Shown: positions 1,651-61,348, counted from the stretch's first letter. The stretch is DNA of 64,000 bases from Cyanidioschyzon merolae (GCA_000091205.1 AP006500.2); one strand, 5' to 3'. The notes: a model not told the origin generated them from the letters alone. A program made the numbers and translations.

Positions 1651-1983
1651 CGTGAACGCTTCCACGGACGCTGCGTGGTTCAGGAAGCGTCTTGCCCGAA
1701 TGATGGAGAAGGGAGCGTGCTCTGTCGATTGTGCGTACCGCCGCCACTGCCGCCGCCGCCGCCGTCGCCGTGGATGTTTCAGCAAAGGCCGCTGTCACTC
1801 CGCGATGGCATTTTTGTACAGATTTATACAGAAGCAATCCGGGGTACGGGTAAGCGCACGTTCTGATGCGTGCATTCGTGTTCGGGTCGCTGTGCCGCGG
1901 AATCAAACTTTGGAACTATACCAGAGCGTGATGCAGTTGGCGTGTCGAAAGATAGGGTGTGCTAGCTCGAAAGCTTAAGTATT

Positions 1984-6457: not shown

Positions 6458-7377
6458 ACGGCTACGAGCCGAACAAGTCCACCGGTGTTAACGGAGTGCA
6501 GAGGCCTGTGCTCCCGGACGCAGATCGCATCTGCACTAGTTCACGTGCGACGTGCAGGATGCTCACTGGGCATCGCATACATTATTGTGATATTCGCATC
6601 AGAATAACATCGCCTGCTGCTGGGATGAGGTGCTTGGCGGGGTTCGCTTATGCGCAGCGGTGACGCCTGCACTGCAATATAGCTGCCTTCGTGGCTTCAG
6701 AGTTTCATGGGTGTGTCGTGTCTGCAAATGACGCTGCATACCGCGCTCGGGTTCATGGGGCCCGGGCACAGCCTCGCAGCGTAGTGTTGCGTTGGATGCG
6801 GGCTCAGCGTTCGCCAGTCATGTGCTTCGTATCGCTTCCAAAGAATGCTGCTGGAGCGATTCCACGAAACGGCTCGCTGTCGAGTAGCGACATGGTCCTG
6901 GGTGTCGTTGGACATCAGTCGGATAACATCTGGTACCGTCGGTGATGGAACGGTGGAGCGGAATCCCGAATTAGCGTAGTCGGACGCGATGCTCCGGAAC
7001 GGTGTGTTGTCCCGGATACGAGATGGCTTTCTTTCTTTATGGACAGTGGAAGTCTACAGCAGCGTTGTCTTTAGAGCGTGGATAATGTTGTCGCTGAAAG
7101 CAAATCGAGGTACCGTGCAACGATCGCAGCGAAGCGACTCGGGTACCCGCTGGACGAGCATCGCAAGACTGCAGGCGTCGCACGCCGCGCTGGAGACGCT
7201 CGTGTTCGAACTTGTGCGGTGCGAGCGGCAAAGACGCCTTTTGAGATGTTATCCAGTTTTGACTGGTCCACGTAGAGGGTCATGTAACGAACAATGCCAG
7301 GATTTCTGTGGAAGACATTCTCGGAGCGTTGCGCTGAGCCCGGCGTAGCCGCCTTCACCATCACTAATAGGAATGTC

Positions 7378-7775
7378 GCTCCCAAACGGAATCAGTTTAT
7401 AGTGTTATGGACACGATGTAGACACCTCGGAATAAGTTATATTTTTGGACTTCACTGCTCCGAACGGAATCAGTGTGTTGTATCATGGATACCATCTAGA
7501 CACCTCGGAATAAGTTATATTTTTGGACTTCACTGCTCCGAACGGAATCAGTGTGTTGTATCATGGATACCATCTAGACACCTCGGAATAAGTTATATTT
7601 TTGGACTTCACTGCTCCGAACGGAATCAGTATGTTGTATCATGGATACCATCTAGACACCTCGGAATAAGTTATATTTTTGGACTTCACTGCTCCGAACG
7701 GAATCAGTGTGTTGTTTCATGGATACCATGTAGAAACCTCTAAATACGTAATACTTCTCGACTTCACTGCTCCAA
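7378..7775. repeat. Tandem array of about 5 copies with a 78-bp period.
   Basis: The sequence cctcggaataagttatatttttggacttcactgctccgaacggaatcagtgtgttgtatcatggataccatctagaca recurs at 7425, 7503, 7581 and 7659 (period 78), with degenerate units at both edges. Confidence 0.9.
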
Positions 7776-18429: not shown

Positions 18430-21400
18430 TTAGGTAGTTGCCGGTGCGTGTCGACGCTCCGTAAAACTCAGTGCATCGTCCGCTGCAATGAAGTCCTCTA
18501 GATCTGCATATGGTTCATCAGCACCCTCTTGTCGGAGCACTTGATCAATGTACGCGTTGCGACTGCGCAGATAACATACGCGACGGGTCGACGCTCTGGC
18601 TTTGGTGCATGCTACAGGTGCCTGCTCCCAGTCGGTAAAGATGATCTTCAGCTCGCCGGTAACTAGCCCAGGAGCTGGCGGTGGTGTCGATTTTTGCGTC
18701 GGTGCGTGGTTTGCGAGCCAGCCACAAACCGCGTCCTGGAGCGCCTTGGGCACGTCTTGAAGTTTCTGCTGCAACCTCGCGAGACTGGCGTCTAGCTGGC
18801 GACACTCGGATTCAAATTTCTCCAAGCAGTAGACGAAGCGGGCACAGGCCTGGTTCACGGATCGCGCCGAGGCGCAACGGGCCGGCAGTGCCTCGCGTAT
18901 GGCGTCAGGGCGTATCAGGCGGGCAACTCGTTGTGCAGATGCTCGGGTTCGCTGGAGGAACTCCAGAGCCGACGCCCACTGCACAAGTGGGGGCGCTTGG
19001 TCAGCGTCCGTGAACGACTCCATTTCGGGGGTCTCGTCTCCGCGAGGCCGCTTGCCGCGCTGCTTCACGATACGATCGAGTTGTCTGCGGATCATTTCGC
19101 TCACGCCCTGGAGATAGTGAAGCGCCTGTTGCGAAACAGATGCAAGGCGCATGAAAAGCGCCAGCGGTACCGCTACCGTGCCTGGCGCGAAAAACGACTC
19201 CAAAAGCGTTACAAGTTGTTGCACAGACCGCAGCTCCTGGTCGTTAATCGTGGATGCGCGAGCAACTTGCGTTTTGACGCGAACGCGAGGTAAATGATCG
19301 GCACCAAACTCAACCACAGCCCAGAGTGCAGCCATTCTGGTTTCCTTTGACGCCTGAGCCAGCAGTCGCAGCAATGCGGGCGTGTCTTCGTTGGGCGCTT
19401 CACTTGACGGATCGGCCGACGAACGACACTGCAGGATCAGGTTGGTGCACAGATGGAGCGCGCGCTTCGAGCCTAGCACCAGCAGCAACGGTCGCAAAAG
19501 CAGCCGATGAACGCTAACCTGTGGAATATCGAAATCGAATAAAATACCAAGGAGCTCGTTCTCGATGTACTGGAGCGCCTGCGACTGCGAGTTGTCTTCG
19601 ACACCGCTGCTCGCGGATGCCTGGGACCATTCTCGCGACTGACAAATCAGATGGGCGATCAAGTCCGCATAGATGGAAACGAGTTTCACCGTGAGACCGC
19701 GATGAAAGTCTGCCCGGAGGCGACGCGTCAGGTAGGCGGCAAGCCATTCCAGGCCTGGCGCCTGCGTCAACTTGGTGCTGTCCTGGATCGCGTACAGTTC
19801 GGAGAAGTTGTTCGTGAGCATCAGCCGCAATTGACTTTGTACCTGCGGTACCGCCAGGAACGCGGCGACCTGATGGACAGGCCATTTGGGCAAAATCGCA
19901 GCGATAAAGTCCAAGGCGTGCGTTTTGAGCCAGAGCTCTGCAGACGCCGGACGACACTGAAGTTCAATCGAATCGCGAACTACTGAGGAGCACGCGAGAT
20001 CGAGCGACAGGAACGCGCACTGCAGGGAGGTTTTTCCTGCTGGCACTTCATCGGACGCATTGGCGGGAGCGATAACGAGCCTGCGCAATGCCTCCACGAT
20101 TCCCTGGTATAACCAGCTAGGCCAGACACGATTGTTCACAAAGTAGTCACCTGTACCGCGAAGATCCCAGAAGTATGTTTCAATGTCCAGATGACGCCGA
20201 AGGATTCGAAAGAGCGATGCAGCGCCGTGCGCAGACCTGCATACCTGAAGCAACTGAATCGCTCGAGCTGCGCTCAGCGCCGGCACAATACGTACCCAAG
20301 CGAGCATATCATGCATAAAACCTCCAGCTTCACCGTCTTGTCGGGAAGAGGCATAGGCTAGGTCAGAGGCTGCCTCGGCTGCACTCACCGTGGCCGGTGT
20401 CCACAGCACGATCCGACGGGGATCTTGAAGAACCTCTCGAGCGACCGAACGAGCACCAGTGACGTAATCCTCTCCCGCGGTTGGTTCATGATCGGTTTCT
20501 GGAACGACATGCTGCTGACGTTGACGCGTGACAGCGTTCGCGAGAATGGGCAATATGGCCTCACACAAGTGCATCAGCTGACCATAAGTCTCGAGCAGAG
20601 TCTGCTGTTCTGTCTGCGATGAGCGGCCGACGTCCAGCAAGGTTTCGTAGCATGTGGCGAGCATTTTCAAGCGACTATCCGCGACTTGAATTCGTGTCAG
20701 TGGAGCGAGCCATTGCTCGGTAGATGCCTTCCGTTCCAAGAGGAGGTCGAGAGCCAGCATCCGCAAAACTGTCGGCGCATTTGATAGATCACTGACGAGG
20801 GTGCTCAGAAAGGAACGCAGGAAATTTGTGGAAACGTCGGCCTGGAATGAAGTCGCGGCCTGTTGCGATGTCATGGCGGGTGTACATGCCGCATCACCGG
20901 CTTCCGAAGCATATCCGGTCAATGGCACTGCATGGATGCAACGCAGGAGTTCAGGCAGCGCCTCCGTTGCGACACCAGCTGCGTGGAAGCATCGATGAAG
21001 ATCCAGATGCGGTGTCGAGACCAAAGTTGATCCCCGGGGCGTTTCCGTGGACACTGCCTCGATGCATCGGGCAAGAGATTCCCTCCAGACACTGATGGTA
21101 GCGTGGCGAAGCACCCGACCTCGCAGGGCGCTGCCAATGGCTAACAATATTTCAGCTCGCAGCGGCTCCGGCGCCATATTCAACGTCCTCAGGAGGAGCT
21201 GGCTGGTCTCGATTTCCGCAGACTCTGTCAGATACGGAGACACAAGAAAACAGGCGAGTCCATGCGCAGCGATGCGTCGTGCACGAATGGCCCGCGAACA
21301 AGCCAGCTTACGGAGAAAGATGAGCAATCCGTCACCCATAGGCTGCCAGAGCGCTCCCAGCGGTGCCAATGCCGCTAGAATGCGCTTTGCGAGAGATATC

Positions 21401-23019
21401 GGAAACTCGATCATGAGCTCACGTAACCAGACGAGAACGCTTTCGCTCAGATCTCGAAGATGCACGCGGTATGCGGGTGAGCTCGCGATGCGTTCGATTA
21501 CAGTACAGTATGCTGCTCTGGTGGCGAGCAGATGCTGCGATTCTGCGATGGCCGACAGACATGCTGAAAGAATCTCCTTCCGTGCACTGCTGTGGTGTCC
21601 AAAGAGCTCCGTGAGCACGTGGACCGCGCACCGCTGCAGGAAGAATGACCGCGACGAGATTTGCTCGTGCGTACGACGGCGTCCACGTCGACGAATGGCC
21701 AAAGGTCGATCCGGGCGTCCCGTCTGGGGGCAGCTGTTGCCGCTCCTCAGGCGCTCGGAAAAGTTGCGAATCTTCTGAGCTGGGGTCAGTTGCATCCACT
21801 GGAACGCGAGCTCTGCGATCACTGGCGCAGCGTGCTCGAGCCCCGGAAGCCTGATGATCCGAGAGAGAATCGCCTCCGCCGAGCACGCGGATGTGCTCGG
21901 TGGAGCATTTTCGGGAGCTTCCGCGATCGCAGTTTCCTCTTCATGTCTCCAGAGCAGTGCAGCTGCCTGCTCCCGGGCGAGATCTGCGATGGCTTCGATT
22001 TCTGCCAAATGGAAACAGAGATGAAGATCAATGCTCAAGCGAGCCGCTCGTGATAACGTTCCCGGTATCAGGGCATTCACCTCCGTGGCAATCGAAGCGA
22101 GCAGCGCCTCGCCGAGCGCAGGCTCAGCATGAGCCTCCATCTCGACAATACAGAGGATATCTGGGAGCGCTTGCTCTGGTGCCGCTGCCAGAACGAAACG
22201 AAGGACGCAAGACCAGTCCCGTGCCGTCTCCAGATCGTAGCCAGCTGATTGCCACCACCAGTCAATGCGGAGCACTTGCTGCAGAATGCGTACCAACAGC
22301 TGCGAGAGTGCTGTCAGCGTAGCGCCGTCACATGACCACACGGCGTCCTGCATGAGCTTGCTCTGGACTTGTCGCTCGGTCGTAGTGACCTGCTCCCGAA
22401 TCGAAGTTGGATCGTTGCAGAGAAGCCATCGCTCCCGTAGCTCCATGTATATCTGCAGCATCGGCAGGGCGGTGTCACCGATCCACGGGAAACACAACAA
22501 GTAGCGTGGTGAGTCACTCAGGATTCGGTTTATCCACTCTGCGCTCGCCAAGCACATGGTGCGCAGGCAGCAGGCGTACAGGCATATTCTCAGACGGTGT
22601 GCCTCAGAGTTCAGCTTGGAGGTGAGCTTTGGGTGACAACGCTCACTGCCGTCTGGAAGCTTCAGTTGTGAACTAGAAGCGGGAGCTTGGCATGCAGGGT
22701 CGTCAGCGAGACTGCTTGCGACAAACCCCCGCAGCCGCTGCAACAGCGGCAAACACTCGTGACTCTGAAGTAGACCTTCCTTGACCCACCGCGCCAAACG
22801 CTGCAGAAGCAACTCCGCTGCTTCAAAAAGAGATTGCAGCGTAACGCCTCCTTCACTCGCAGCAACGTTCCCACGCAGGCCCGCAGACGCAACCTGGGCG
22901 CAGTTACAGAGCGTCTGCGCTGCTTCTACAAGCACCTGCCTGTACTTTTCGGGACAGAAGCCTTCTGGTCCCTGTTGCATCAATTCCTGGATATTGTCCA
23001 GAGTTGTCGATGACGGCAT
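18430..23019 (-). CDS. Large (1529 aa) alpha-helical protein of unknown identity, possibly HEAT/ARM-like.
   Basis: Uninterrupted 4.6-kb ORF with coding-like codon bias. Composition is Leu/Ala-rich and helical. I recognise no diagnostic motif. Confidence 0.6.
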   Translation of the reverse strand: MPSSTTLDNIQELMQQGPEGFCPEKYRQVLVEAAQTLCNCAQVASAGLRGNVAASEGGVTLQSLFEAAELLLQRLARWVKEGLLQSHECLPLLQRLRGFVASSLADDPACQAPASSSQLKLPDGSERCHPKLTSKLNSEAHRLRICLYACCLRTMCLASAEWINRILSDSPRYLLCFPWIGDTALPMLQIYMELRERWLLCNDPTSIREQVTTTERQVQSKLMQDAVWSCDGATLTALSQLLVRILQQVLRIDWWWQSAGYDLETARDWSCVLRFVLAAAPEQALPDILCIVEMEAHAEPALGEALLASIATEVNALIPGTLSRAARLSIDLHLCFHLAEIEAIADLAREQAAALLWRHEEETAIAEAPENAPPSTSACSAEAILSRIIRLPGLEHAAPVIAELAFQWMQLTPAQKIRNFSERLRSGNSCPQTGRPDRPLAIRRRGRRRTHEQISSRSFFLQRCAVHVLTELFGHHSSARKEILSACLSAIAESQHLLATRAAYCTVIERIASSPAYRVHLRDLSESVLVWLRELMIEFPISLAKRILAALAPLGALWQPMGDGLLIFLRKLACSRAIRARRIAAHGLACFLVSPYLTESAEIETSQLLLRTLNMAPEPLRAEILLAIGSALRGRVLRHATISVWRESLARCIEAVSTETPRGSTLVSTPHLDLHRCFHAAGVATEALPELLRCIHAVPLTGYASEAGDAACTPAMTSQQAATSFQADVSTNFLRSFLSTLVSDLSNAPTVLRMLALDLLLERKASTEQWLAPLTRIQVADSRLKMLATCYETLLDVGRSSQTEQQTLLETYGQLMHLCEAILPILANAVTRQRQQHVVPETDHEPTAGEDYVTGARSVAREVLQDPRRIVLWTPATVSAAEAASDLAYASSRQDGEAGGFMHDMLAWVRIVPALSAARAIQLLQVCRSAHGAASLFRILRRHLDIETYFWDLRGTGDYFVNNRVWPSWLYQGIVEALRRLVIAPANASDEVPAGKTSLQCAFLSLDLACSSVVRDSIELQCRPASAELWLKTHALDFIAAILPKWPVHQVAAFLAVPQVQSQLRLMLTNNFSELYAIQDSTKLTQAPGLEWLAAYLTRRLRADFHRGLTVKLVSIYADLIAHLICQSREWSQASASSGVEDNSQSQALQYIENELLGILFDFDIPQVSVHRLLLRPLLLVLGSKRALHLCTNLILQCRSSADPSSEAPNEDTPALLRLLAQASKETRMAALWAVVEFGADHLPRVRVKTQVARASTINDQELRSVQQLVTLLESFFAPGTVAVPLALFMRLASVSQQALHYLQGVSEMIRRQLDRIVKQRGKRPRGDETPEMESFTDADQAPPLVQWASALEFLQRTRASAQRVARLIRPDAIREALPARCASARSVNQACARFVYCLEKFESECRQLDASLARLQQKLQDVPKALQDAVCGWLANHAPTQKSTPPPAPGLVTGELKIIFTDWEQAPVACTKARASTRRVCYLRSRNAYIDQVLRQEGADEPYADLEDFIAADDALSFTERRHAPATT

Positions 23020-23229
23020 TAATCAATAGGAGACTCTTTGACGCCTTGCGTCTGAAGCGCTATGCGTGCTTTGCGTGCAGGGCGTCACGAAGCATGCATC
23101 TGCATGCGATGCGTTTCGCGCGTTGCTGGCGCGTTTGCGCTTGCCGCGAAAACGATCGATTGCTGCGGAGGCGCGCGTTCTGGAGTCTCCTGGGTTGATT
23201 ATCCTAGCGTTTTAACTTACATGTATTCC

Positions 23230-25660
23230 ACTGCGAGGTGCATGTAATCAAAAGCGTTTTCGCGGTTTATTACGGATGCTTTCGAAGTAGGTTCATTTGA
23301 AGGAAGAAATACACTATGAGAAAGGTGTGAACATGGACTTTGGGGATCCTGGAGGGCCTTCATCTCCGGGTTCCGGAAAAATATGAATAAACAGTTTCGA
23401 GCCCAGAGGAACGAAAGGTGACGAAGAAGCGAAGGGGGCAGGTCAAACGTCAAGAGCTTCGGGAGAAACGACACTAATACCAGATTGTAATGAAATCATA
23501 TCTTCGAGGCCATATTTGGGACGCGTACGAGCCCAAAATGCGAGAGGCTATCAGAAAGCGTGCCGATTCGTGTTCGAGCAGTTTTCGCTACGTTTTCCTA
23601 GGACTGATGCATTTAGTAAGGAAGACGTATCGCGACGCGAAGGATATCAAAACATTCGAGGTTCCGGAAGAATTATTCAACAGGACCTTTATTCGGCACG
23701 TGATGAATGGCGCAAGGGAAGCGTCGAGGAGGAATGAGCGAGTGTATGACCTCCACGAGAATCACGCTGAATACCGCTTCAACGGTACTCGATACAGGGT
23801 TGACATGCGTATTTACGAATACAGAGCGATAGAGTACCTCCCGAACCTAAAGAATCGTATGATCGTGAACCTCAAACGTTTCATGATACGCTCCATCTTT
23901 ACGCTCTACCCGGGCCTATCTCGCAAATGAATAGAGAGCATCATCAATGGGATGACAAACGATCGCCAGCATGAACAGGAGATCGAATTCGTCGACGAAA
24001 GGACATAGCACAGGAGTACGAATGAAGCTTCTGTAATGCGTGCGGCTATTCAAGAGCGCCGTGCGGTCTTGGGGCTGATCAATCAAGCAGAAAAGGTATC
24101 AGATATAAGAAAAGATGAAGAAAGATGTCATCTCCTCATCCTACGCTATTTCGTGTTCCTGAACCGAGAACCCGAACGCAAGGCGGAGATGGAGCTGGGT
24201 GTGGGAAAAATGGAGAGTGGGAGAGACAGAAGGCTGTGCTGCTGGAGAAGCGCTTCAACGCTGTACCGTTGTGCACCATCAAGCCACATTTTGTGACTAT
24301 CGATTCCGGCGTTCGCTACGGCATCATGAAGGAGATCTGTCCGGAGTTCAATGTAAGGAAGACAGCGTTCACCAGTGAAAACCGGACAACGCACTGGAAG
24401 AATATCTTCGATTTCAAGCGTCTCAAAACAAACAAGGGGAAGAAATTCGCTCGGATGATCGAAACAGATGGGGTAGCCATGTGTGTACACTGTCGGCGAT
24501 TGAAGGCAGATCGTCCAGTTCCGTCCTCCGCTTCGTCCGTGACGAATTACGACGATGAGTAGGAGGCGGACCCAGCCACGCAGGAGGTAGAGGATACTGA
24601 CTTTGTCGTTGGCGCGGACCCTGGGAATACGAATATCATAACCATCGCAGTACCCAAGCGTGCGGAGGATGGTAACGATCGCAATTTATGCCAGAAAGAC
24701 ATACATCAGTTAAACCTCTCACGAGCGAGATATCACCGAGAGTCGGGAGTACTTAATGCGAGGGAAAAATGAGACATGAAATGCAGGAATGCAAGAGCAC
24801 CTTGAAGCTATGAACCAGATGACGAGCCGCGGAGCAGACTTTCAAGCTTTCAGGAATTCATGGAAGTTCGCGTTGCTCATTGGGATGCGCTGTGGAATGA
24901 GTATGCAAAGCCCTGGTGGGCTCGTTTGCGTATGAATCTATACGGTGGGAGGCAGCGGGCGTTCGCAAACTTTTTCAATCAGTTGAGCGCCTCGAATGAG
25001 GATGAAATTCAGAGGCTCGGTGCAGCGTACGGAGCAGGGCGCTGGAAGACCAAAAAGTGACTATGCTAGCACCAACGATGAGAACGTACAAGGAGTGTGC
25101 AAGGCGTTTCGTTACGATACCAATAGATGAGTTTCGAACATTTTATACACACCATGAACTGGGGTGTACACTCCAGAGAGTGGAGATGGAAAAGTTCCAG
25201 CGGAGCCATGAGGATATAAAAACGTACGGAGCGCTGACGGTAGAGCAAATGGAGAGGAGGGCGAGACTTCGAGGACTACTTGCATTAGTAAGTACAACCA
25301 ATGATGGCAAGAAACGTATGGAATTCGTGAACTGTGACTTTAATGCCGCTATCAATATAAGGAAATGTGCGGTGCTGGAGACGAGACCTCCAGAGTTGAC
25401 ATGGGAGAATTTTGTGGGGCAACCTCTCAAAGTGGAATTATATGAGAAAAAATTGGAATCAGTAGTATGCGGCCGGTCCAAAAAGACTGCAAGGCGTCTG
25501 CACGTTACTAAGAGACGTCTTGTCTAGGGCGGGTTTCTCGCCACTACTCTACACTTCTGGTCGCAACGTTTGTCTTTTGAAAGGCGTTTGTTGTCGGTGA
25601 TGGCGGTGTTGAGTACTAGAATTCCCCGTGTGAAAGCCAGGAGGCAGCTTTGTCAGGTTG
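23230..25660 (+). mobile_element. Fanzor/TnpB-like element, copy A. Its ORF is broken by frameshifts and stops; boundaries are approximate.
   Basis: ORF pieces 23490..23930, 24036..24296, 24125..24562, 24860..25060 and 25057..25527 align in order with the 622-aa ORF at 56757..58625. It encodes Ruv[20 protein letters not shown] near 24590-24650 and RuvC-III MEFVNCDFNAAINIRKCAV near 25320. About 120 nt after the stop codon are conserved with copy B. Confidence 0.7.
23490..25527 (+). pseudogene. Fanzor-like RuvC nuclease pseudogene with at least four frame disruptions.
   Basis: The homologous segments sit in three different frames and are separated by stop codons at 23930, 24562, about 24770 and 25060. 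Confidence 0.7.
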
Positions 25661-26359
25661 ACGTGCGTTTTCCCAAGGATCAGGACGCTGCGACTTGGAC
25701 GAGTATTCAACGTCTCCTGGTCTAAACGTTGCGCACACGCACACGACGCCTCGCCGAGCTACCTTTCCTATGCAGCAGCATCTTCCCTAGAGTTTGCCGG
25801 GCTTGGGCTTTAATCAGGTGCGCTACGGCCTGAACGCCTTCTAATGCGGAAGAAGCCTACCCAGGGGGCGTACGCCTCTCGCACTGCTACCTCGGCGAGC
25901 GCAACTGCCGCTTGCTTTCAGGCTGCAAACTGCCACGGGGTAACGAGGTTGCCTGCCCTCGTCGTGCCCTGCCTTTATCGTAAGGATAATTCGATATCAC
26001 TTCAGCAGCCAAGAACAAAAGGCGCTCATAGGAACCGGTGGGAAGTCTCTCCAGGCACTACCCGGGTCGACGCGCGCCGACATTCCCCACGAAAGCAGGG
26101 CGCACACACACGTACGCAGCACTGAAGCAGCTGGTTGTCTCGCTCTGGCGTTTGCAACGCTGTGATGCTCGGTTTTGACGGGTATCGCTCGACGGAGGCT
26201 GTGCAGCAGCCAACTGAACATGCGCATCGGGGCTCGTCGCTTGAAATCATGTCAAGGTATGCAAAAGTTTAGTGGACAGCAAGATCAGCGAGCATTCCTT
26301 CGACCTCGAAAATATATCTAACTTTCTGGAGACCCATGAGATTCATGTCGCTCCCTGGT

Positions 26360-27358: not shown

Positions 27359-28786
27359 GGAAGCCGTATGAGCGTAGGCTCTATGACTTAAGTCTCAAGC
27401 TAAGGACACTGCGTAGCGCCACGTGACTCATGCCCGCTGAAATGCAAACGATGGAAAACGGGTTGTTTCGTGGCTGCGGGCAGCGACATCTCTAGTCGGC
27501 GCCAGCAAGAACAGAGCAGGTGGTGGGCTCTCTCTCTCTCTGGACGATGTCCGCAGCGGCGCTTTCGGCACCGTCATAAATGCAAACTGGTGGATCTTCA
27601 TCCGGAGGATTTGCATAAGATGCCAAGTTCCTCGATGGTAAGCCTGGTTGTGGCTTCCGGAACACTGGAGCTGGGAGCGGAATCGTGGGTACTGAAATCG
27701 ACGTCGGTAGCAATGGCGAGCTCGGGGAACGCCAGTCAAAGTGAGAGATCGGATGCCTCAGAAAAAGATCCATCAACGTGTTGAGAACGAAGCGCGGAAT
27801 ATTATCAAGCAGCTGCAAGATTGCTCTGCAGTACATGAATCAACAGTGGCGCTCGGTTCGACGTCCATAGTTACGGGAGGTTCCAAGCAATCATTTTCGT
27901 AGAAGAGACATTTTTGGGCAACCGCTGTGCACCTATGCGATGGAGCAATCTTGGCGCTCTGGAGCACACAGATGCTGCTGATGCTGCTCAAATGCTCGAA
28001 ACGTTCAGACTTCTTTTCACGTGCTCGCGCTGCGCTGGCTCCGACGTTTTCGGCCAATGTCTTTAGACCACGCCCTGACCGTTTTGAAGATCCCAGTTGG
28101 TATCTTGCACTGCACAGCAGTCATTCCAATCGATGCCTACATATCCTTCGATGCCCTTGGGACTGAATCCAAGCGTGTGAACGGACTCGCCAGGAGTCCT
28201 CGAAAATTCACCTAAATGTGCGTATTTATGTTCATGTCCATGCGATTGCCGCTCAAAGCTGCTGGCTCCAGAGCACCTGCGCGCCAAGGAGTCCCAAACT
28301 GGTCTCGCTTCCACTCACAAGCTGTGCTGTATGTCCGCTATAGGAGGCTACGCTGGATCTGCCGAGCAACGCTTCCCATGGTGAGTACTGTTGTGCAGGT
28401 GGTAGCGCTTGGAAACTCCATACGAGCAGAGGACCTCCATTCGCCGATTGTTGGAACCATTCGTTCACCCGCGGGCGTCTGTCGGACTCAGGTTTTGTAC
28501 ACCATGAGGGTACGCCAGCTCGTTGCTGGACACCCGCATACGGCGTGTGAGTATCTGCTCATCAACTGATCACAGGGATCCTAATCGCTCCGCTGGACGC
28601 CCGGATGAAAGCAGATCTTCCCGATTCGAACACCAGAGGCAATTTCTGTCTGTGTCGGACGGGATATGCTCGACTATGCATAGACTCGCCCGAAGGTATA
28701 TGAGACACGCGCGAGCTACCTCAATGATATGGATAGAGGCGCAGCGCTCAGCCGATCATCATATGCGAGCAAAAAAAGAATTCGAG

Positions 28787-29110
28787 CAGATTTCCAAGCA
28801 TGGAAGCCAACGCAAGACAAGAACAGATAAGAGCGATCTTTTTAGAGCAGTAATCAAGCACTAGCAGATTTCCAAGCATGGAAGCCAACGCAAGACAAGA
28901 ACAGATAAGAGCGATCTTTTTAGAGCAGTAATCAAGCACTAGCAGATTTCCAAGCATGGAAGCCAACGCAAGACAAGAACAGATAAGAGCGATCTTTTTA
29001 GAGCAGTAATCAAGCACTAGCAGATTTCCAAGCATGGAAGCCAACGCAAGACAAGAACAGATAAGAGCGATCTTTTTAGAGCAGTAATCAAGCACTAGCA
29101 GATTTCCAAC
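28787..29110. repeat. Tandem array of about 4 copies with a 78-bp period, unrelated in sequence to the array at 7.4 kb.
   Basis: cagatttccaagcatggaagccaacgcaagacaagaacagataagagcgatctttttagagcagtaatcaagcactag begins at 28787, 28865, 28943, 29021 and 29099. Confidence 0.9.
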
Positions 29111-29278
29111 CGTATGTTTTAAAGCAGAAAAAGTCAAGAGCGCCACGACGCCGTACATGCTCTCGCACGACCCAACCCCGAATCTGGATAAAGCCTCAGC
29201 CCCAAAGATCGTGCAAGTATTGGTACGGTGAGTGAAACGGAAACGTACTTAAACCGTGGAGGTTTGAGTATTAACCTA

Positions 29279-29850
29279 TGTGCAGACGCCTCCCAGCTTT
29301 TTTCGACCGGAAGCCAGTGGTCAGTTTTGGTTTATCCAGGCACCATACGAGCATCAGAGGCTGCCCCATAACATTAGATTGCCTAATTCCTTCAGCACTC
29401 GTCTTCAGCACCGAAAAATCGTGTGATATTGATGGCAATGTCGGAGTCTCGGATCACGAACTCCTTGTGCGCATTGCCGCTGGTTGAACGCATCAATGCG
29501 AGGATTGCTAGAACTCGCGCGCTCTGTGCGACTACAGTCTCGTTATCGCCCAGTGGGGCAAACACCATTTCTTGCCTGTCCGCCCGCTTCTTCTTCGTCT
29601 TCGGCACTAGCTCTTCATCGCTCGATGCTCGGCGAGAAGAGCGTTTTTCCTTATTTTTACCGGCATTCGGCGACGTTGACCCCTCCTGGATCCCCGACAT
29701 TCATGTCCATACTTTTCCCTTGGATTCTTCATTTCTTCAAACGGACACATTTCGAACACATCTGCTACAAGCCGCGAACATGCATTTGATAACACGCACC
29801 CGGATGCGGAACACCATTGAGGTGAACGACTTGAGTGAAAACGCTCACGC
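29279..29850 (-). mobile_element. Truncated 3'-terminal fragment of a Fanzor-like element (divergent subfamily).
   Basis: It starts with gtgcagacgcctcccagc, which matches the copy-B 3' tail at 56695. It then carries the reverse complement of the Fanzor C-terminal coding region (tattgatggcaatgtcggagtctcggatcac) and about 350 bp homologous to copy-B sequence near 56900-57250. Confidence 0.6.
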
Positions 29851-30033
29851 GGGACATCCGCCGAGGCGCTCTAGCCGACGCCCTCAGCGGTACGTCAAAG
29901 CCGTTCTTTCTCCGTGTTGCATCTGCACCAGCGGTGTGAGCGCTATCGGGAGTAGGCGCGGCAGGCACTCGGTGCACGATAGAATATATGGAACGACCAG
30001 TATATCCTAAAGGAAGTATGGGTCATGAAACAT

Positions 30034-30135
30034 GAAGTTAGGGTTCATCATGATGGACACTTGCTCGATTGCCATAATCCATCCCCCAAACTGGAATCCC
30101 TGCTCAATGGAAACGTTTTGTCGAACAAAAGCAAA
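30034..30135 (+). repeat. Dispersed repeat of about 100 bp; copy 1 of 2, with the second at 38004..38105.
   Basis: ataatccatcccccaaactggaatccctgctcaatggaaacgttttgtcgaacaaaa matches attatccatcccgcaaactggaatcccgtatcaacggaaacgttttgtcaaacaaaa at 38041. Confidence 0.6.
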
Positions 30136-30269: not shown

Positions 30270-31478
30270 ATGAACGCATGGAATCGCGTACGAGTCCTTC
30301 TTCCGTCGGTGGTCGTTTTCATCGGCGTCATTTGCTTGTTACTGGGATATGTACGTGAGAAGCAAACCACGTTAGCGTTAGCACCGGCTATTGCGAGCTC
30401 TGCAGCGCTCTCTGCAGTACCGCGGGCGTCACGGTTGCCGCTGCCGGTACGCGTCTCCGTGAGCACGCTTGCGCGAGCTTCGGAGGGCCCCGTCGAGGCA
30501 CCTGCCAACCCGAACGATGTGGTCTCGGCTTGGGGGAACACAGAGCGTTGTGAAACTGTGGTAAAGCGAGTTTTTGAGAAAGCACGTATCGACCGAAGCT
30601 CCGTCGGGGAGAGCACCTGCGGTCTTTGGGGAACCAGGGCGCCCGCGTTAGACTCGGGCAGCCTCGAGTACGAACGCGTCCTACAACGCCTTGAAGCGGA
30701 ACAGCAAGAGCATCTTGATCGCGCGCTACTCTACGCCTCCCTGTACCTGTTGCGTTTTTCGCAAGCGGAGAGACTCGGACAACGTCTGCACGCTTTACGA
30801 ACGCTGCGGGAACTCTGTCACGCATGGCAGCACGCACTCCGTCTCGGGAATCTGGGGGCAATACCCCTGATCACACAAGCACTTGAGGATCCGAATGCGC
30901 TTATACGCCGCGAGGCAGCCTATGTGCTCGCATCAGCATCTCAGAACCACTACGAGTTCCAGCAGTTCGTGCGGCCAACGGCACCGGAGCTGCTGCGACA
31001 TGCCGCTGACTCCACTGAATGGTTGCCTGTTCGAAGTGCTTGCCTACATGCTGCGCTGGCTATGGTTGAAAATTACCGCCATGACTACGGCGAAAGTACC
31101 ACGGATTCCGCCCTGCGGATCTTTGAAGAAGCGTTGGAAATCTGCTCGAAGTTGTGCACGGCTGCAGTCCATGAACGAGCAGATATGAACCGCTTCGTTC
31201 GTCGCTCCATCACATTCATACGCTACTTGTTGTGCATCTCGTCTCGGTCGGGAGACGAATCCGTGTCGACGCTTTTCTTGCGAGCATTCGATCAATACGC
31301 TGAACGACACGCTGTGCGACACCGGCTCGAGCAGACGCTCCGTAGCGCCTGCGTTGCCTCCGATGCGAGACTCGAGCTCAGCGCGTTGATGCAGGTATTG
31401 CGCTCGACACGAATGCCTGCCCTCCCGGATGCAGCGATGCTGAATACCCTCGCTGGGCGAGGCGAGTTCACCGGTTGA
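30270..31478 (+). CDS. Armadillo-repeat protein with an N-terminal signal/anchor; Sil1/Fes1-like Hsp70 nucleotide-exchange factor (tentative).
   Basis: Hydrophobic N-terminus LLPSVVVFIGVICLLLGYV, followed by ARM-like repeats (LGNLGAIPLITQALEDPNALIRREAAYVLASAS). 402 aa. Confidence 0.45.
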   Translation: MNAWNRVRVLLPSVVVFIGVICLLLGYVREKQTTLALAPAIASSAALSAVPRASRLPLPVRVSVSTLARASEGPVEAPANPNDVVSAWGNTERCETVVKRVFEKARIDRSSVGESTCGLWGTRAPALDSGSLEYERVLQRLEAEQQEHLDRALLYASLYLLRFSQAERLGQRLHALRTLRELCHAWQHALRLGNLGAIPLITQALEDPNALIRREAAYVLASASQNHYEFQQFVRPTAPELLRHAADSTEWLPVRSACLHAALAMVENYRHDYGESTTDSALRIFEEALEICSKLCTAAVHERADMNRFVRRSITFIRYLLCISSRSGDESVSTLFLRAFDQYAERHAVRHRLEQTLRSACVASDARLELSALMQVLRSTRMPALPDAAMLNTLAGRGEFTG

Positions 31479-36600: not shown

Positions 36601-38003
36601 CTCCAATCGGACGCCGTTTATCGATTCCCTGGACGCAAGTTGCAGCGTTCTCACCTCCCCGGATTCGATACGCAGTGCAGCGCGAGACATCAGGTCTACC
36701 AGAGGCATCGTTTGACCCTAACGACCTCTTTCCCAGAGGGCACGCTGTTCGTCGCCGTCTGGTGTGCACTGCGAATTGGCATGCACGGAGTCCGTCAACT
36801 TGCCACGAATATGCCGAATGAGGAAGCCTGAATGAACACTGCCCCAGTGATAGGCTGCATCGTCTCATGGTTGATTCGGAGCAAGCGCCGCACGTGAGTT
36901 TGCTGGAGCACTGCATTCGAAACTTCGTAAACGGATGCGCGCGGCTCTGGTCCTAAGCGGGCTGCCATCGACGCATTCTTCGATGCACAGCGGGGACGCT
37001 TTGCATTCACAAAGCCACGAATGAGCACTCGTTCACGCAGCCAGGTTCCCACTGCACAAAAAGGCGTTCCTGCATCTCTCCGAGACCGCGCCTGTGTTTC
37101 GAGAAGAGTTTCCGAAGAGACTCTCCTTGCTTGTTTTGCTTTCGATGTATCCGTGAATTTAAAGCTGCAGGTTTCCCGCCATGCGCGCACAATTTATCCC
37201 GTGAACAGGTACGAGCATCTCTGTACTTGGTGGACCATCGAAGTATTCACCTAGCTATCCTTTCGGGCGCAAGTTCTTGCCAGCCCACGTTTTTCATGAC
37301 TCATGATCGGTGCGTTCAACCACATGCCCTGGTACGCCAACCTCGATTCCAGGAGATCCTGGATCGAAGCGTCACTATCGTCACACCATCACAGAGAGAA
37401 GCGCTGTGTACCGGCCCTGAACAGATTCAAACGCCATGAAGCATTCTGCGTCGAGAGCACAGAAACGAAATGCTACCTAGCAACGAGATCAGAATTTCTT
37501 TCCGTCTCTACGGTTGGCATTGAAAGGGGGAATGGTTTTCCGTATTTTCGAAAGTTTACATTTTTTAGGCAGAAGATCCAGCGAGCTGGACGGGTCTGCC
37601 AGGCCAGTGCTTCATGTGCCTCTGCTGGGACAGGTGCGGTGTCGAGACCTGAGCAACTCGTCCGCAACGCAGTTCTTTCCGGATTTCGGAGCTGGTAGAA
37701 TGTGTCTGGGCGCTGCCCTGATTGCGATAGTCTGCTAGAATATCGCTTCGCGCTGCCGCAGGAATCAGGTCCGGCTGCGCAGATTGCTGGCTCCCAGTAT
37801 GATCATGAATCCCAGTCCTGTGACTAGTGAACCACACCTCGATCCGACGCTCTCTGTTGTATGGTAAATATGCTCTGTCTTCATCTCACATCTGCAACGT
37901 CGCTGCAAGGACTATGGCAGGTGCAGCAAGGCGGGTATGCGGCGCACTATAGAACATACAACACGACCAGTAAATCCGAGATCAAGTCTAGGAAAATAAA
38001 CTT

Positions 38004-38105
38004 GAAGGTAAGGTGCAACATCACTGACGCTTTCTCGTTTACCATTATCCATCCCGCAAACTGGAATCCCGTATCAACGGAAACGTTTTGTCAAACAAAA
38101 CAATT
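38004..38105 (+). repeat. Dispersed repeat of about 100 bp; copy 2 of 2.
   Basis: Matches 30034..30135 in the same orientation. Confidence 0.6.
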
Positions 38106-42959: not shown

Positions 42960-43540
42960 TCTGCGTCTGCCCAACAACGTGCAGACGCCTCCTAGTCTTT
43001 CTAGACCGGCCACCTATGAATGGGTTCAACTTCTTCCGGTATTATTCGACCTTGAGAGGTTCCTTCACAGGGTAAGTTCGCGTCAGCTCTGCGGGTCTCT
43101 TCTGCATCACCGCATATCTCCTTCTATTGATAGCAACGTGAAGGCCTCGATGCACAAACTCCATGCATACATCACCGCTGGTTGAATTCATCAGTGCAAG
43201 GATTCCTCGACGGCGTGCCCTGTGTGCCACTACAGTCTCGGTATCGCCCGTCGGGCAAACATCTTTTCCTGACCATCTCGCCTCTTCTTGTTCCTCGTAT
43301 CACTTGCTCTTCTTCGCGCGAAGAATCGGCGAGGAGTTTTTCCGTTTTTTTTCCGGCAGCCGGCGATGCCAGCTCTCTAGGATCCCCAATTTGCGTATTG
43401 AAATTTTTCCCTTACATTTTTTCTTCTTCGAATGAGCGCACGTCGAACGCATCTGCTATGAACCACGAAAGAGCATTGAATGTCAAACACCAGGAAGTAA
43501 AACACATTCGAGGTGAAAGACGTGAACAGGTTGCATAGAG
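42960..43540 (-). mobile_element. Truncated 3'-terminal fragment of a Fanzor-like element, same subfamily as 29279..29850.
   Basis: gtgcagacgcctcctagtctttctagaccggccacc at 42979 matches the copy-B tail. The minus-strand ORF 43042..43230 translates MEFVHRGLHVAINRRRYAVMQKRPAELTRT, a degenerate RuvC-III region (compare MEFVNRDFNAAVNIRRCAVLETRPPELNTRE in copy B). About 350 bp that follow are collinear with 29476..29850. Confidence 0.6.
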
Positions 43541-56584: not shown

Positions 56585-58700
56585 GAATAACCTCGGACAA
56601 ATCGGGTACACGAACGTCTTACAAGATAAACGCTGCTGCGGCCAGAAGTGTACAGTAGTGGCGAGAAACGCGCCCTAGACAAGACCTCTCCAAGTGACGT
56701 GCAGACGCCTCCCAGACTTTTTGGACCGGCCACCAACTACTGATTCCATTTTTTTCTCATATTAGTCCACTTTGAGAGGTTCTCCCACAAAATTCTCTCG
56801 TGTTCAGCTCTGGAGGTCTCGTCTCCAACACCGCACATCTCCTTATATTGACAGCGGCATTAAAGTCTCTGTTCACGAATTCCATACGTTTCTTGCCATC
56901 ATTGGTTGTACTTACTAATGCAAGTATTCCTCGAACTTTCGCTCCCCTTTCCATTCGCTCTACCGTCAGCGCCCCGTACGTTTTCATATCCTCAGGGATC
57001 CGCTGGCACTTTTCCATCTCCACTCTCTGAAGTGTATATCCCAACTCATGGTGTTTATAGAATGTTCGAAACTTATCTTTTGGTATCGTAACGAAACGTC
57101 GTGCCCACTCCTTGTACGTTCTTGTCGTTGGGGCTGGGGTACACCCTTTTTGGGTCACCCAGCGCCCTGCTCCGTACGCTACTACCAGCCTGTGACTCTT
57201 GTCGTCCTCCAAGGCGCTCAACTCATTAAAGAACTTGGCGAATGCACGCTGCTTCCCACTGTATAGATTCATACGCAGACGAGCCCAGCGGGGCTTTGAA
57301 TATTCTTTCCACATCTCCTCGTCATGAGCAGCCTGGGTTTCCATGAATTCCCGAAAGGCTCGAAAAACCGCCCCGCGGTTTGTCACTTTGCTGAACTCCT
57401 CACGGATATCGAACTCCGGGCTGATTTCTTTCAATGGGCCATGAAGGACGCTGGAGTTGATAGTCACAAAATGTGACTTGACGTTGCATAACGGAACGAC
57501 ATTGAAGCGCTTCCCCATTAGGGCAGCCTTCCGTCTCTCCCACTCCTCATTTTCTTCCTCATCCCGCATCATCTCCGCCTTGCGTTTGAGTTCTCGGTCC
57601 AAAAACACGAAATACGGCAGGATGAGGCGAAAGTATCTTTCCTTATATTTTTTCAACTCTGATATCTTTTCTGCTGGATTAGCCAGCCCAAGTACAAGAC
57701 GATCCTCTTGAAAAAGCGCACGGATTACAGAAGCTTCACTCGTATTCTCGTTTGACACTTTCTTGTCGACAAATTCGATCTCATCTTCATGCTGGCCATT
57801 GTTTTTGATACCATTGATAATCGCCCATATTGCTTTGCGAGAGAAGACCGGGTACAGCGCAAACACGGCGCGTATCATGAAACGTTCGAGGTTCATCGTC
57901 GAATGGTTCTTCAGGTTCGTGATGTACTTCATCGCCCCGTATGTGCAAATACGCGAGTCACCCTTGTATCGAGTACCCTCGAGGCTGTAAAACGGACGTT
58001 TTTCGTGAAGAGCGTGAACCCGCTCATTTTCCCTGCGCGTTTCCCCTGTGCCAAACATCAGCTGGCGAGTAGAGGTCTTGTCGAAAAACTCGTCTGGAAT
58101 CTCGACTGTTTCCATGTGCGTCACGTTGCGATACATCTCCCTCGCCAAATGCATCAGTCCTGACGACGCCTTAACAATGCTCTTGGAGCACGAGTCGACA
58201 CGGTTGCGGATGGCGTCTCGCAACTTTTCCTTGTACGAATCCTTCACACGTTTAAGAAGACAGGCTTTCGCCACCATCTCGTCGTACTGTTGCCTTTCGT
58301 ACAGCTTGTTCGTCTTCTCTTGTACCTCTGGACTCTGTACTGATTGTCGTCTTTTTCTGGCAGCTGGCGACACTGCGCCTCCAGGATCCTCTACTTCCTT
58401 TTCTATACGTTTCCTTTTTGTATTTGTTTTTTTTTTCTTGAAAAAGAGCGCATTTTTGAACGCTTCTTCTACAAACCAGCAAAAATAACTTGACCCCAGT
58501 CTGTTGAGGGTTAAAACGCAATCGAACTGAAAACGATGCTTTGCTACGACTACAACGCAAACACATCTTTTTCGGTGGAGCAAAACTCTATATATCAGGA
58601 TCGCGTTTCCCTTCCACAGCGACATTTACGTCGTGCCTCGTGAGTGCCAGTTCTCGAGGTGCGCGTATCGACCGCGCCATGGATAAAAGAATAGAAACGA
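56585..58700 (-). mobile_element. Fanzor/TnpB-like element, copy B, carrying a 622-aa ORF. The 5' boundary is uncertain.
   Basis: About 90% nucleotide identity to copy A across the C-terminal coding region and the roughly 170 nt downstream. The 3' homology to copy A fades at about 56585. Confidence 0.75.
56757..58625 (-). CDS. Fanzor-like (eukaryotic TnpB/OMEGA-family) RuvC-fold protein. It lacks the RuvC-I segment and so is probably nuclease-dead.
   Basis: C-terminal KKRMEFVNRDFNAAVNIRRCAVLE matches the D-x-N-A-A-x-N-I RuvC-III signature of TnpB/Fanzor. It is collinear with copy A except for a deletion of about 385 nt that spans the GADPG RuvC-I motif. Confidence 0.7.
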   Translation of the reverse strand: MSLWKGNAILIYRVLLHRKRCVCVVVVAKHRFQFDCVLTLNRLGSSYFCWFVEEAFKNALFFKKKKTNTKRKRIEKEVEDPGGAVSPAARKRRQSVQSPEVQEKTNKLYERQQYDEMVAKACLLKRVKDSYKEKLRDAIRNRVDSCSKSIVKASSGLMHLAREMYRNVTHMETVEIPDEFFDKTSTRQLMFGTGETRRENERVHALHEKRPFYSLEGTRYKGDSRICTYGAMKYITNLKNHSTMNLERFMIRAVFALYPVFSRKAIWAIINGIKNNGQHEDEIEFVDKKVSNENTSEASVIRALFQEDRLVLGLANPAEKISELKKYKERYFRLILPYFVFLDRELKRKAEMMRDEEENEEWERRKAALMGKRFNVVPLCNVKSHFVTINSSVLHGPLKEISPEFDIREEFSKVTNRGAVFRAFREFMETQAAHDEEMWKEYSKPRWARLRMNLYSGKQRAFAKFFNELSALEDDKSHRLVVAYGAGRWVTQKGCTPAPTTRTYKEWARRFVTIPKDKFRTFYKHHELGYTLQRVEMEKCQRIPEDMKTYGALTVERMERGAKVRGILALVSTTNDGKKRMEFVNRDFNAAVNIRRCAVLETRPPELNTREFCGRTSQSGLI

Positions 58701-59218
58701 GTCATGAAGTAGCAGCTCGATAACAATTTCTTTCCCCTCTACGGTAGGCGTTAGATGGGGAAAGTTTCTAAGCTTTCGAAAGTTCACCTTAGAGGCGGAA
58801 AAGCGCGCGAGCGGGACGAATTTCCCAGTCTCATGCTTCATGCTCCCTCCAGTGCCCAGCGCTGTAGCGAGATATAAGCAGCTTGTCCGAAACGCAGTTT
58901 ATTCTTGGACTCTGAACGGGTAGCCTGCGTCTGGTCGTCGCGCTGGTCCCAGTGGACTCCTAGCGTATCGCTTCGCGCAGCCGCAGCCGGTAGGTCTGTC
59001 CGCGCCGTTTCCAGGTTCCCAGAATGATAACGAATCCCGACCCCGTATCAGATGAACCCTGCCTCGATCCGGCACCCTCTGTGGTATGGTAAAGCCTTTC
59101 TGTCTCCGTGCTGCATCCGTTCCAGCGGTAGAAGCGCCACGGCGAGTGCTCAAAGCAGGTAATCGGCGCATGATAGAACATTCGAAACGACCGGTGCACC
59201 CGAAAGAATACACCAGTA

Positions 59219-61348
59219 ATGGAACTTGGAGGTAGTTGCCTTATGATGGACAATTACATGAATCCTAATACCCGTCCCGCAATCTGGTATCCCTTATCAA
59301 TGAAGACGTTTCTTCATCGAAAAAAGATCAGCGGTACTGCTTCGAGCAGCAGTGCACGGCGGCGGCGCCGCCGAATGCCTGCGATGCACTCGGATATCTT
59401 GCTCAGGACGATAGCCTGGCCTCAAGACAGAACAGGAAAACAGTGCACTAGACAGTGCTGTTTTGTTTTGTGCTGTGTTTTGGACGAGCCCCTCAGGGAA
59501 CAGCGAGGGAGTTGCCCGCACGCCATGGGTAGTCCGCAGCTGGGGCACGCCTGCGCACCACACCAGGGCCTTCATAAGGGAACTCGGCAGCGAACCACGG
59601 AAAAGAGGCACATTGCTCCTGCCCAATTAGGACAGTTTGACACTGAGAGCGAGGTCGCTTTCTCGGGATATGGTAATGCTGCAGTGGTCAACCGTGGAAC
59701 CCACCCGCGAAGTTTTTCAGCGCGTACCAGCTTCGTCTGGTTTACTGAGCCCTGTGCTTTGACCAAAGTGCACGGCAAACACCCGTGCATAGGCATCCAG
59801 GAGAGTTCCTTCAGCGCTCCTGTTCTCTATCCGATCCATGGAGCTTCACGGATTCTTGTTCAGAGGCATTCCCCGCATCCGGTAAAGCGTGCGCTCCCGC
59901 GCTCGCGCTCTCGCTCCTGGAAAGCCTCGCTGTTCGAGCGTTTCTTCGGCCGGAAACGGTCATCGCGCCAAACTTGGCCCCACTTGATCAAAGAACAAGC
60001 ACCAACGGGGACAGTACCAGCTTCAGGTGCCTCATTCGCACAGAATGGAGCGGACACCACAGTTATTCCGCGAGCACGCGCTCGACATTCCCGTCACGAA
60101 CCGACAAGGGTAGCGTCGCCGACTCCCAGTAGTCGTGACATCACAGATGTTGACCGAAGCAACGCGGAAACTTGCATCGCGATACGCCATGTACACAAGG
60201 TTTTTCCCGACTCACATGCACCAGGAGGACAATTTTACGCCCTTTGTGATATTTTGCTCGATATCGAGGACGGCTCGCTAGTGGCTTTGGTTGGCCCCAG
60301 CGGTAGCGGCAAGTCGACACTGCTTCGTTGTATTGCGGGGCTTGAGAATCCGACCTCGGGGCGTATCTTCCTCCATGGGCGAGATACCGAGGAGATGAGT
60401 GTTCAGGAACGACGGATTGGCTTTGTATTCCAGCATTATGCATTGTGGAAGCACATGACCGTGTGGAAGAACATTGCATTTGGATTGGAGATTCGCAAGA
60501 CGCCTCGCTCAGAAATAGAACGGCGCGTCTTGGAGCTTCTGAAGCTCATGGGTCTTGAGGGACTCGGTGACCGCTACCCACATCAACTGAGCGGCGGACA
60601 GCGCCAACGGGTTGCGCTGGCTCGAGCCCTAGCTCCCGAACCGCGCGTCCTCCTCCTCGATGAGCCGTTTGGTGCGTTGGATACGCGAGTGCGGCGGAGT
60701 CTGCGTGCATGGCTTCGGCGCTTGCACGATGAGGTCGGCACAACGACGATCTTCGTGACGCATGATCAACAGGAGGCTTTAGAGATAGCCAGCTCCGTGG
60801 TGGTCATGAACAAGGGCCAGATCGAGCAGGTCGGCACACCGCTTGAGATCTATGAGCATCCAGCGTCGCCGTTTGTCATGAGCTTCATGGGCGATGTGAG
60901 CGTCGTGAGTCGTGATGCGCTCCCCGCAGAGCAGGCAAACGGGCGCACCTTCACGAATGCTACTCGAGCGCGCTCCGTGGAGACATCCAAAAAAGACTCC
61001 ATTTGGTCGGACCCCGAGCGTCCGCCGACAATACCGCGCGAGTCTGAGACAACGACCAATGTCCGTAAGAGCGATAACGCCGCCCAGTACTTGATGCTGC
61101 GTCCTCATGACGTTCACTTGCATCGCAGCCCCGATAGCACCACGGCTCCGGCTCGTGTTGTCGACGTGTTTTTCTTAGGTTGGAGTGTGCGTGTTGATGT
61201 CGAGCTCCAAGACGGCCAAATTCTTCAATCCATCATGCTCACAACGCGCTACAAAGAGCTGGGCGATTTGTATCCCGGCGACCTCGTGCATGTTAAGTTC
61301 TTCGGGGAACGCTCCTTCGAGGTGGACGAGGCCGAGTATAACATCTGA
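59219..61348 (+). CDS. ABC transporter ATP-binding protein of the CysA (sulfate/molybdate importer) type, with a C-terminal TOBE domain and a 200-300 aa N-terminal extension.
   Basis: Walker [11 protein letters not shown]-loop FVFQHYALW, signature [15 protein letters not shown], Walker [13 protein letters not shown]-loop FVTHDQ, then a TOBE-like C-terminal beta domain. The first roughly 300 aa are low-complexity with no in-frame Met close to the domain. Confidence 0.8.

Follow-up and report, generated by a model that had tools for sequence, protein, structure and literature searches.

A 5′-truncated and decayed copy of CMe-1A, in all probability an inert Fanzor1 fossil, on chromosome 18 of Cyanidioschyzon merolae

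Fanzor1 proteins are eukaryotic, TnpB-like, RNA-guided DNA endonucleases of the RuvC type. The tail, the lesions and the relatives of one such gene remnant in the red alga C. merolae are described here against the closest described systems. The Fanzor proteins were named by Bao & Jurka (2013, Mobile DNA 4:12; PMC3627910), who described a single Fanzor1 family, CMe-1, from C. merolae. Its carrier is the element CMe-1A, of which there are about 150 copies that each show about 80% identity to a consensus of about 3 kb (PMC3627910). The clade label used here is taken from the table of that paper, in which C. merolae is placed under Fanzor1 (PMC3627910). No terminal inverted repeats and no target-site duplications were reported for CMe-1A, its 5′ 635 bp are common to a second repeat, TE-N2_CMe, and some of its copies still have intact protein-coding capacity according to the same authors (PMC3627910). 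In the supplementary files of that paper and in Repbase, the consensus is 3169 bp long and has an ORF at 906-3110 encoding 734 amino acids in a single exon, entered as '734 (1)'. This is the only ORF in the 3169 bp. Saito et al. (2023) reported that the omegaRNA of Fanzor1 directs TAM-dependent double-strand cleavage.

The S. punctatus Fanzor1, SpuFz1 (PDB 8gkh, Saito et al. 2023), and the CMe-1 family have the same order of blocks, namely the WED motif I(E/T)TDG, RuvC-I with DP(G/N), RuvC-II with DE(F/Y)(R/K)TS and RuvC-III with NRD. In both elements one ORF precedes a short non-coding tail that is conserved at the right end, and both have short derivatives without the ORF. In contrast, the sequence identity of the two proteins is very low, with no direct pairwise match, and terminal inverted repeats of 30 nt could not be recognised in CMe-1A. 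TnpB of IS200/IS605 and IS607 (for example ISDra2 TnpB) has the same RuvC D-E-D architecture as CMe-1, relatives of CMe-1 match the TnpB/Cas12f TNB domain PF07282, and by likeness to prokaryotic TnpB an omegaRNA would be predicted to lie at the 3′ end and to overlap the ORF. Unlike prokaryotic TnpB, CMe-1A has a eukaryotic nuclear host, a much longer protein (734 aa), a basic, NLS-like N-terminus and no TnpA gene. The host being a eukaryotic chromosome, CMe-1A stands outside the bacterial and archaeal insertion sequences that carry, or derive from elements with, TnpA.

The window, by which we mean the whole 64-kb stretch of DNA that was analysed, is nuclear DNA of C. merolae 10D chromosome 18, in which six flanking ORFs are identical to 10D proteins annotated on a contig of 1,253,087 bp. 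Copy A lies between CMR449C, whose start codon is at 23019 on the opposite strand, and the next gene. The element and the flanking genes named in the text are as follows.

23243..25586, + strand: copy A, a CMe-1A copy (consensus 827-3169, single alignment)
23243..23326, + strand: remnant of the 5′ untranslated leader of copy A (consensus 827-905; 79 nt left)
18430-23019, − strand: flanking gene CMR449C, identical to the 10D protein
30270-31478: flanking gene CMR454C, identical to the 10D protein
59219-61348: flanking gene cysA, identical to the 10D protein

When the published CMe-1A consensus was aligned to the window by blastn and global alignment, copy A was recovered as consensus positions 827-3169 in one piece with 83.0-83.5% nucleotide identity. 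The alignment of about 2340 nt contains 2337 aligned bases and 13 gap columns in a total of 2350, and it reaches the final consensus base. Copy A is assigned to CMe-1A because it gives one collinear alignment to the published consensus through its last base, which is the decisive test of membership. Stop codon and 3′ end are shared by the two. Substitutions amount to about 16%, in agreement with the published figure for single copies, and the amino acid identity to the consensus protein is 72.8% over 729 codons. Consensus 1-826 has no match upstream of 23243. Copy A differs from the consensus in lacking these positions, including the 635-bp part common to TE-N2_CMe, as well as in its mutated start, six nonsense codons and seven indels. 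The limits of copy A are 23243 (possibly 23215) and 25586 (possibly about 25598), the outer values being the reach of a profile built from metagenome copies, which matched out to 23215 at the 5′ side and to 25598 at the 3′ side. Judged from sequence comparison, copy A (23243-25586, +) is almost certainly a 5′-truncated, decayed copy of CMe-1A, the Fanzor1 transposable element of C. merolae, and an inert fossil, and the locus is properly annotated as a pseudogene fragment of CMe-1A. Since the family had already been published in 2013, with consensus, copy number and Fanzor1 protein, and the biochemistry of Fanzor1 was established in 2023, the locus itself has little discovery value.

All three RuvC motifs can be located in copy A, and the catalytic codons D431, E603 and D672 are all still readable.

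24602..24652, + strand: RuvC-I of copy A (catalytic Asp431 codon GAC at 24617-24619)
25117..25155, + strand: RuvC-II of copy A, IPIDEFRTFYTHH, which reads IPIDEFRTF (Glu603 codon GAG at 25129-25131)
25324..25365, + strand: RuvC-III of copy A, FVNCDFNAAINIRK (Asp672 codon GAC at 25336-25338)

In the profile-PDB alignment, RuvC-I of copy A is aligned with VVVIDPNKRDILY of SpuFz1, RuvC-II with LDEYKTS, and RuvC-III, for which the consensus is NRDFNAA, with NRDMLS. An earlier note, made from the sequence alone, had described a Fanzor pseudogene with RuvC-I and RuvC-III at 23230-25660. This range brackets the true limits of copy A, and the description is borne out by the CMe-1A alignment and the SpuFz1 profile match, with RuvC-II kept too.

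Neither the frame-corrected copy A nor copy B, a second CMe-1A copy in the window, gave by itself a Pfam match or a direct sequence match in the PDB. The link to Fanzor depends on the family profile or on the assignment already published. With the corrected copy A as query, 45 relatives were recovered from the database, almost all of hot-spring metagenome origin, among them P0001 (752 aa, open, 53% identity) and the distant P0045. A profile of 23 family sequences had a single match in the PDB, S. punctatus Fanzor1, with an E-value of 3.5e-6 (8gkh and six further entries), and the alignment spans the WED strand (IETDGVA against ITTDGAS) followed by RuvC-I, RuvC-II and RuvC-III. The same profile, run against 1.84 billion proteins, found 3584 representatives at E≤1e-3. 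Ten of these profile relatives were sampled for PF07282 (Cas12f1-like TNB): one, P0281, passed the gathering score and two were just under it. Against the cut-off of 26.3 bits, P0281 scored 33.6 and P0150 23.7 bits, and the distant P0045 from the first search 25.0 bits. Copy A, copy B and P0001 had no significant Pfam match. The CMe-1 proteins are without a canonical CxxC...CxxC zinc ribbon between RuvC-II and RuvC-III, unlike relatives such as P0045, in which the cysteine-rich ribbon is present. An AlphaFold2 model of P0001 from the 23-sequence alignment had a pLDDT of 42, too poor for comparison of folds. The assignment of copy A to Fanzor1 is thus supported, at the level of sequence, by identity with the published element together with profile-level homology to SpuFz1 and to the TnpB TNB domain.

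Copy A becomes more similar to the consensus from 5′ (72-73% identity) to 3′ (85-90%), and a conserved tail can be delimited at the 3′ end.

25416..25598, + strand: conserved 3′ tail of copy A, a candidate omegaRNA scaffold and/or cis-acting right transposon end (final 37 codons, then about 60-70 non-coding nt)

The tail of copy A terminates in ...CTTTTGAAAGGCG(TT), the terminus being given also as ...GAAAGGCG(TT), and its match by nhmmer has an E-value of 1.5e-51. Across 47-68 copies the conservation per column is about 90%, with a sharp drop after GGCGTT, about 60-70 nt past the stop codon; in the family the conservation stops abruptly after ...GAAAGGCGTT, which is the published consensus end. 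The deletion derivatives of CMe-1A retain this tail, the greater part of which is coding as well. The predicted fold of the consensus tail is a three-way junction closed by CAGTAGTRG/CYACTACTG and followed by a long terminal hairpin. RNAalifold on 47 tails gave just one 3-bp helix, and the structure of minimum free energy of the consensus is 81% paired, barely above shuffles. The observed values were reached by 8 of 500 shuffles for cells paired, by 18 of 500 for double changes and by 41 of 500 for the covariation score, a weak signal in which the comparison with slid partners is inflated, the structure having been taken from the consensus itself. Fold stability had a z-score of −2.1 at the P0001 locus and of −1.2 in copy A. 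Rfam was scanned with 22900-26000 at E≤1, and no match was found. In appearance the conserved 3′ tail of CMe-1A resembles an omegaRNA, but its covariation signal is weak. By analogy with the described Fanzor1, whose mechanism is the one best supported for the family, the protein of active CMe-1A ancestors would have formed a complex with an omegaRNA made from the conserved 3′ part of the element, and a 3′ extension of this RNA reading into flanking DNA would have guided cleavage beside a short target-adjacent motif.

At the other end of the element, a run of 2-9 T directly precedes 16 of the 18 non-redundant copies that keep the 5′ terminus. This terminus is ...TC[AG]TNGACAAAACGTTT..., and the flanks ahead of the T-run are unrelated. 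The T-run may represent a TAM-like or target motif, or else the slippage-prone first bases of the element.

Taken further, CMe-1A might be an OMEGA element of the IS200/IS605 type without its own transposase, in which the tail (25416-25598 in copy A) would be a multi-branched omegaRNA, the 5′ T-run a target-adjacent or insertion motif, and dead copies like A, together with derivatives that lack the ORF, like copy D (42964-43481), suppliers of guides to the Fanzor1 of a few intact copies. We regard this proposal as speculative and rather unlikely. If it is true, the mechanism of mobility of CMe-1A, an 'unclassified' element, becomes testable. The bounded, structured 3′ tail and the 5′ T-run are leads toward a putative omegaRNA and TAM of the Fanzor1 of a red-algal thermoacidophile.

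For copy A in particular, this would mean that the protein is dead while the tail is still transcribed as an omegaRNA, with the flank after 25586-25598 as guide, and loaded in trans by the Fanzor1 of an intact CMe-1A, and that the locus would keep a part in RNA-guided cleavage or homing. Agreeing with such a role are the position of the best-kept part of copy A at its 3′ end, the existence of short derivatives that keep the tail, copy D among them, which recall the ORF-less 'ghost' elements of S. punctatus, and the report by Bao & Jurka of copies with intact protein. Nevertheless, copy A has a damaged version of the long-range helix predicted for the consensus, its fold is no stabler than that of shuffled sequences, the 3′ bias in conservation is explicable by selection on the RuvC domain in master copies, and covariation is weak. 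A surviving role of copy A as a guide in trans is therefore improbable, a shade more so than the general proposal, and the reading of copy A as an inert fossil is preferred.

The damage to the coding sequence of this fossil amounts to about 14 lesions, comprising the lost ATG, six nonsense codons and seven frameshifting indels, in addition to the absence of the first 826 nt. The lesions and the stop codon are as follows.

23327..23329, + strand: ancestral start codon of copy A (ATG to GTG)
23384-86, + strand: nonsense codon of copy A (R20 to TGA)
23475-77, + strand: nonsense codon of copy A (Y50 to TAA)
23928-30, + strand: nonsense codon of copy A (G201 to TGA)
24006-08, + strand: nonsense codon of copy A (S227 to TAG)
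24560-62, + strand: nonsense codon of copy A (K412 to TAG)
24777-79, + strand: nonsense codon of copy A (W485 to TGA)
about 23388, + strand: frameshifting indel of copy A (+1, inside a poly-A run)
about 23586, + strand: frameshifting indel of copy A (+1)
about 23599, + strand: frameshifting indel of copy A (−1)
about 24204, + strand: frameshifting indel of copy A (−1)
about 24763, + strand: frameshifting indel of copy A (−2)
about 24847, + strand: frameshifting indel of copy A (−1)
about 25049, + strand: frameshifting indel of copy A (−1)
25525..25527, + strand: ancestral stop codon of copy A (TAG, kept)

Four of the six nonsense codons were also seen as '*' within the tblastn alignments to copy B. 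Copy A contains no uninterrupted ORF with a start codon of the kind that a functional Fanzor1 gene would have, and because of the lost start, the six nonsense codons and the seven frameshifting indels it is unable to make the protein. The earlier estimate of about four frame disruptions was thus too low. The same note had proposed to reconstruct a full-length ancestor from the window. This would add nothing and is not needed, since an intact 734-aa protein can be read directly from the published consensus and intact genomic copies have been reported.

The presence of several ORF pieces in three frames in a eukaryotic host would also agree with a functional multi-exon gene in which the changes of frame are introns. 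However, the frame order 3,2,3,2,1 of the tblastn segments arises from the seven indels, which are changes of 1-2 nt against the consensus, with no inserts of intron size and only 13 gap columns in 2350. Moreover, the six nonsense codons lie within segments homologous to coding sequence on both sides, the ancestral ATG is now GTG, and the ORF of the family is a single exon in the table of Bao & Jurka. We give the multi-exon gene practically no credence.

Besides copy A, the window contains five further CMe-1A fragments, all on the opposite strand.

56623..59319, − strand: copy B, CMe-1A with both ends kept (consensus 1-1950 and 2394-3159)
56757-58625, − strand: open, uninterrupted ORF of copy B (622 aa)
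37456-38093, − strand: TE-N2_CMe-like copy (consensus/profile match)
29280-30122, − strand: copy C, an internally deleted derivative with 5′ and 3′ parts kept (consensus/profile match)
42964-43481, − strand: copy D, an internally deleted derivative with 5′ and 3′ parts kept (consensus/profile match)
52873-52954, − strand: small fragment E (consensus/profile match)

A breakpoint at consensus 826-830 is common to copies A, C and D.

Copy B has an open ORF with an in-frame internal deletion of 444 nt that takes out the IETDG strand and RuvC-I. In addition, the RuvC-II glutamate is replaced by lysine (IPKDKFRTF), and the C-terminus is altered by a +1 indel near the end of the ORF. The earlier note was silent on the loss of RuvC-I and of the RuvC-II glutamate from this open ORF. 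An exact look-up of the copy B protein found no gene on record. Purifying selection was tested as the cause of the open ORF and gave no distinguishing signal, the dN/dS against the consensus of 0.41 for copy B being not below the 0.44 of the dead copy A.

As the earlier note had stated, five pieces of copy A in three frames are collinear with copy B. In a comparison by tblastn of the copy B ORF against the 64-kb window, five collinear segments of copy A were recovered in frames +3,+2,+3,+2,+1 over residues 88-615 of copy B, with summed E-values of 9e-83 and 3e-76 in the 64-kb search space. The six peptides quoted in that note are present at 23490-23579, 24248-24310 and 24899-24976 (+) in copy A and at 58247-58179, 57512-57450 and 57305-57228 (−) in copy B. 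At the nucleotide level, the repeat finder gave an inverted match of 25050-25399 with 56804-57153 (350 nt, 89%), adjacent to which 167 nt are 88% identical, and identity farther upstream is 74-79%. The C-terminal piece had been called exon-like and about 90% identical; the identity stands, whereas the exon-like character does not, the family ORF being a single exon and the disruptions being of 1-2 nt.

Two long homologous stretches in inverted orientation within one window could also result from segmental duplication of one host locus. Against this, the similarity of A and B halts at 25591/56610, the ends of the element, with none in the flanks, and each copy matches the repeat consensus with a different pattern of truncation and deletion. 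At least four other fragments of the element are present in the window, more than 280 related stretches are present in metagenomes, and dS between A and B is 0.445. A host duplication is accordingly given next to no weight beside the interpretation of A and B as separate CMe-1A copies. Chance similarity of the two copies, with E of about 1e-83 and 1e-76, was rejected, these values being far beyond chance.

The scan of metagenome contigs confirmed 286 related loci, and of 80 of these almost all have stops and frameshifts. In line with Bao & Jurka, CMe-1A has the look of an old family, for the most part dead, in these algae. Among the 80 loci, just that of P0001 stays open across 752 codons. It was rejected as a clean intact copy, since slippage in a poly-A run has put its ORF one nucleotide out of frame with the ATG of the family, and a change of CAA to TAA removes the last 37 codons of the consensus. 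The poly-A run is variable among copies of the family, with the three frames found at 17:17:9.

As listed below, the window holds several copies related to CMe-1A, the Fanzor1-carrying transposable element, besides copy A, its decayed pseudogene.

CMe-1A-related copies in the window
56623-59319, (-), copy B, a CMe-1A copy with both ends; ORF at 56757-58625
37456-38093, (-), copy of TE-N2_CMe, a 635-bp repeat; 77% identity to CMe-1A consensus 4-634
29280-30122, (-), CMe-1A fragment C, an internally deleted derivative with 5′ leader and 3′ tail pieces kept
42964-43481, (-), CMe-1A fragment D, an internally deleted derivative with 5′ leader and 3′ tail pieces kept
52873-52954, (-), CMe-1A fragment E

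The 622-aa frame of copy B is still open at ∼16% divergence. An in-frame deletion of 444 nt, corresponding to consensus 1951-2394, has removed the WED strand and RuvC-I from this copy, and the Glu of its RuvC-II is replaced by Lys (KDKFRT). The dN/dS of copy B against the consensus (0.41) was no lower than that of the dead copy A (0.44). Fragments C and D resemble the 'ghost' elements of S. punctatus, which have no ORF. They also have a breakpoint at consensus position 826-830 in common with copy A, suggestive of either a shorter subfamily or a hot spot of recombination.

Codons ∼17-22 of the Fanzor1 ORF form a poly-A run (∼23370-23392 in copy A, 58330-58350 in copy B), the length of which is highly variable between copies. 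Because of this variation, only 17 of the 43 copies (A, B and 41 metagenome copies; frames 17:17:9) have the conserved ATG in the frame of the main ORF. At the otherwise open locus of P0001, a 752-aa metagenome relative, the ATG is out of frame. Directly before RuvC-I, the linker carries a tandem array of ∼24-aa repeats (DPATQEVxDNDxVVDAxKHExxK), located at 7150-7440 of metagenome locus L001 (P0001 residues ∼385-480). P0001 and another relative, P0008, have 4-5 units, and the C. merolae consensus and copy A have just a single unit.

In 16 of the 18 non-redundant copies keeping the 5′ terminus, ...TC(A/G)TNGACAAAACGTTT is immediately preceded by 2-9 consecutive T at the end of an otherwise unrelated upstream flank. 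Such runs were located at 59320-59330, 38097-38105 and 30127-30135 in the window, and in metagenome loci L010, L018, L030, L043, L054, L080, L081 and others. The T-run is a possible insertion or TAM-like motif. Target-site duplications could not be determined in the original description of CMe-1A (Bao & Jurka 2013, PMC3627910).

The cysA CDS (709 aa, +) is annotated as beginning at 59219, within the 5′ end of copy B, which is on the other strand; the overlap is at 59219-59319. Orthologues from metagenomes that fall into its 90% cluster have 607 or 701 aa, so that the N-terminus as annotated may be too long.

A second, distant Fanzor-like family shares metagenome contigs with CMe-1-type copies and lies no more than a few kb from them. 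In the RuvC-II/III region, its identity to P0001 is 28-47%.

Second Fanzor-like family in metagenome loci
L024, 5275-5599, (-)
L059, 8900-9450, (-)
L063, 8477-9169, (+)
L074, 3376-3809, (-)
L075, 3165-3727, (-)
L081, 7056-7740, (-)

Two tandem arrays of the window share a 78-nt period and are nevertheless unrelated to each other.

7382-7771, ∼5 units, 88-94% identical
28758-29147, ∼5 units, 78-92% identical

Both are apparently non-coding minisatellites, as stops occur in every frame. The array at 28758-29147 adjoins fragment C.
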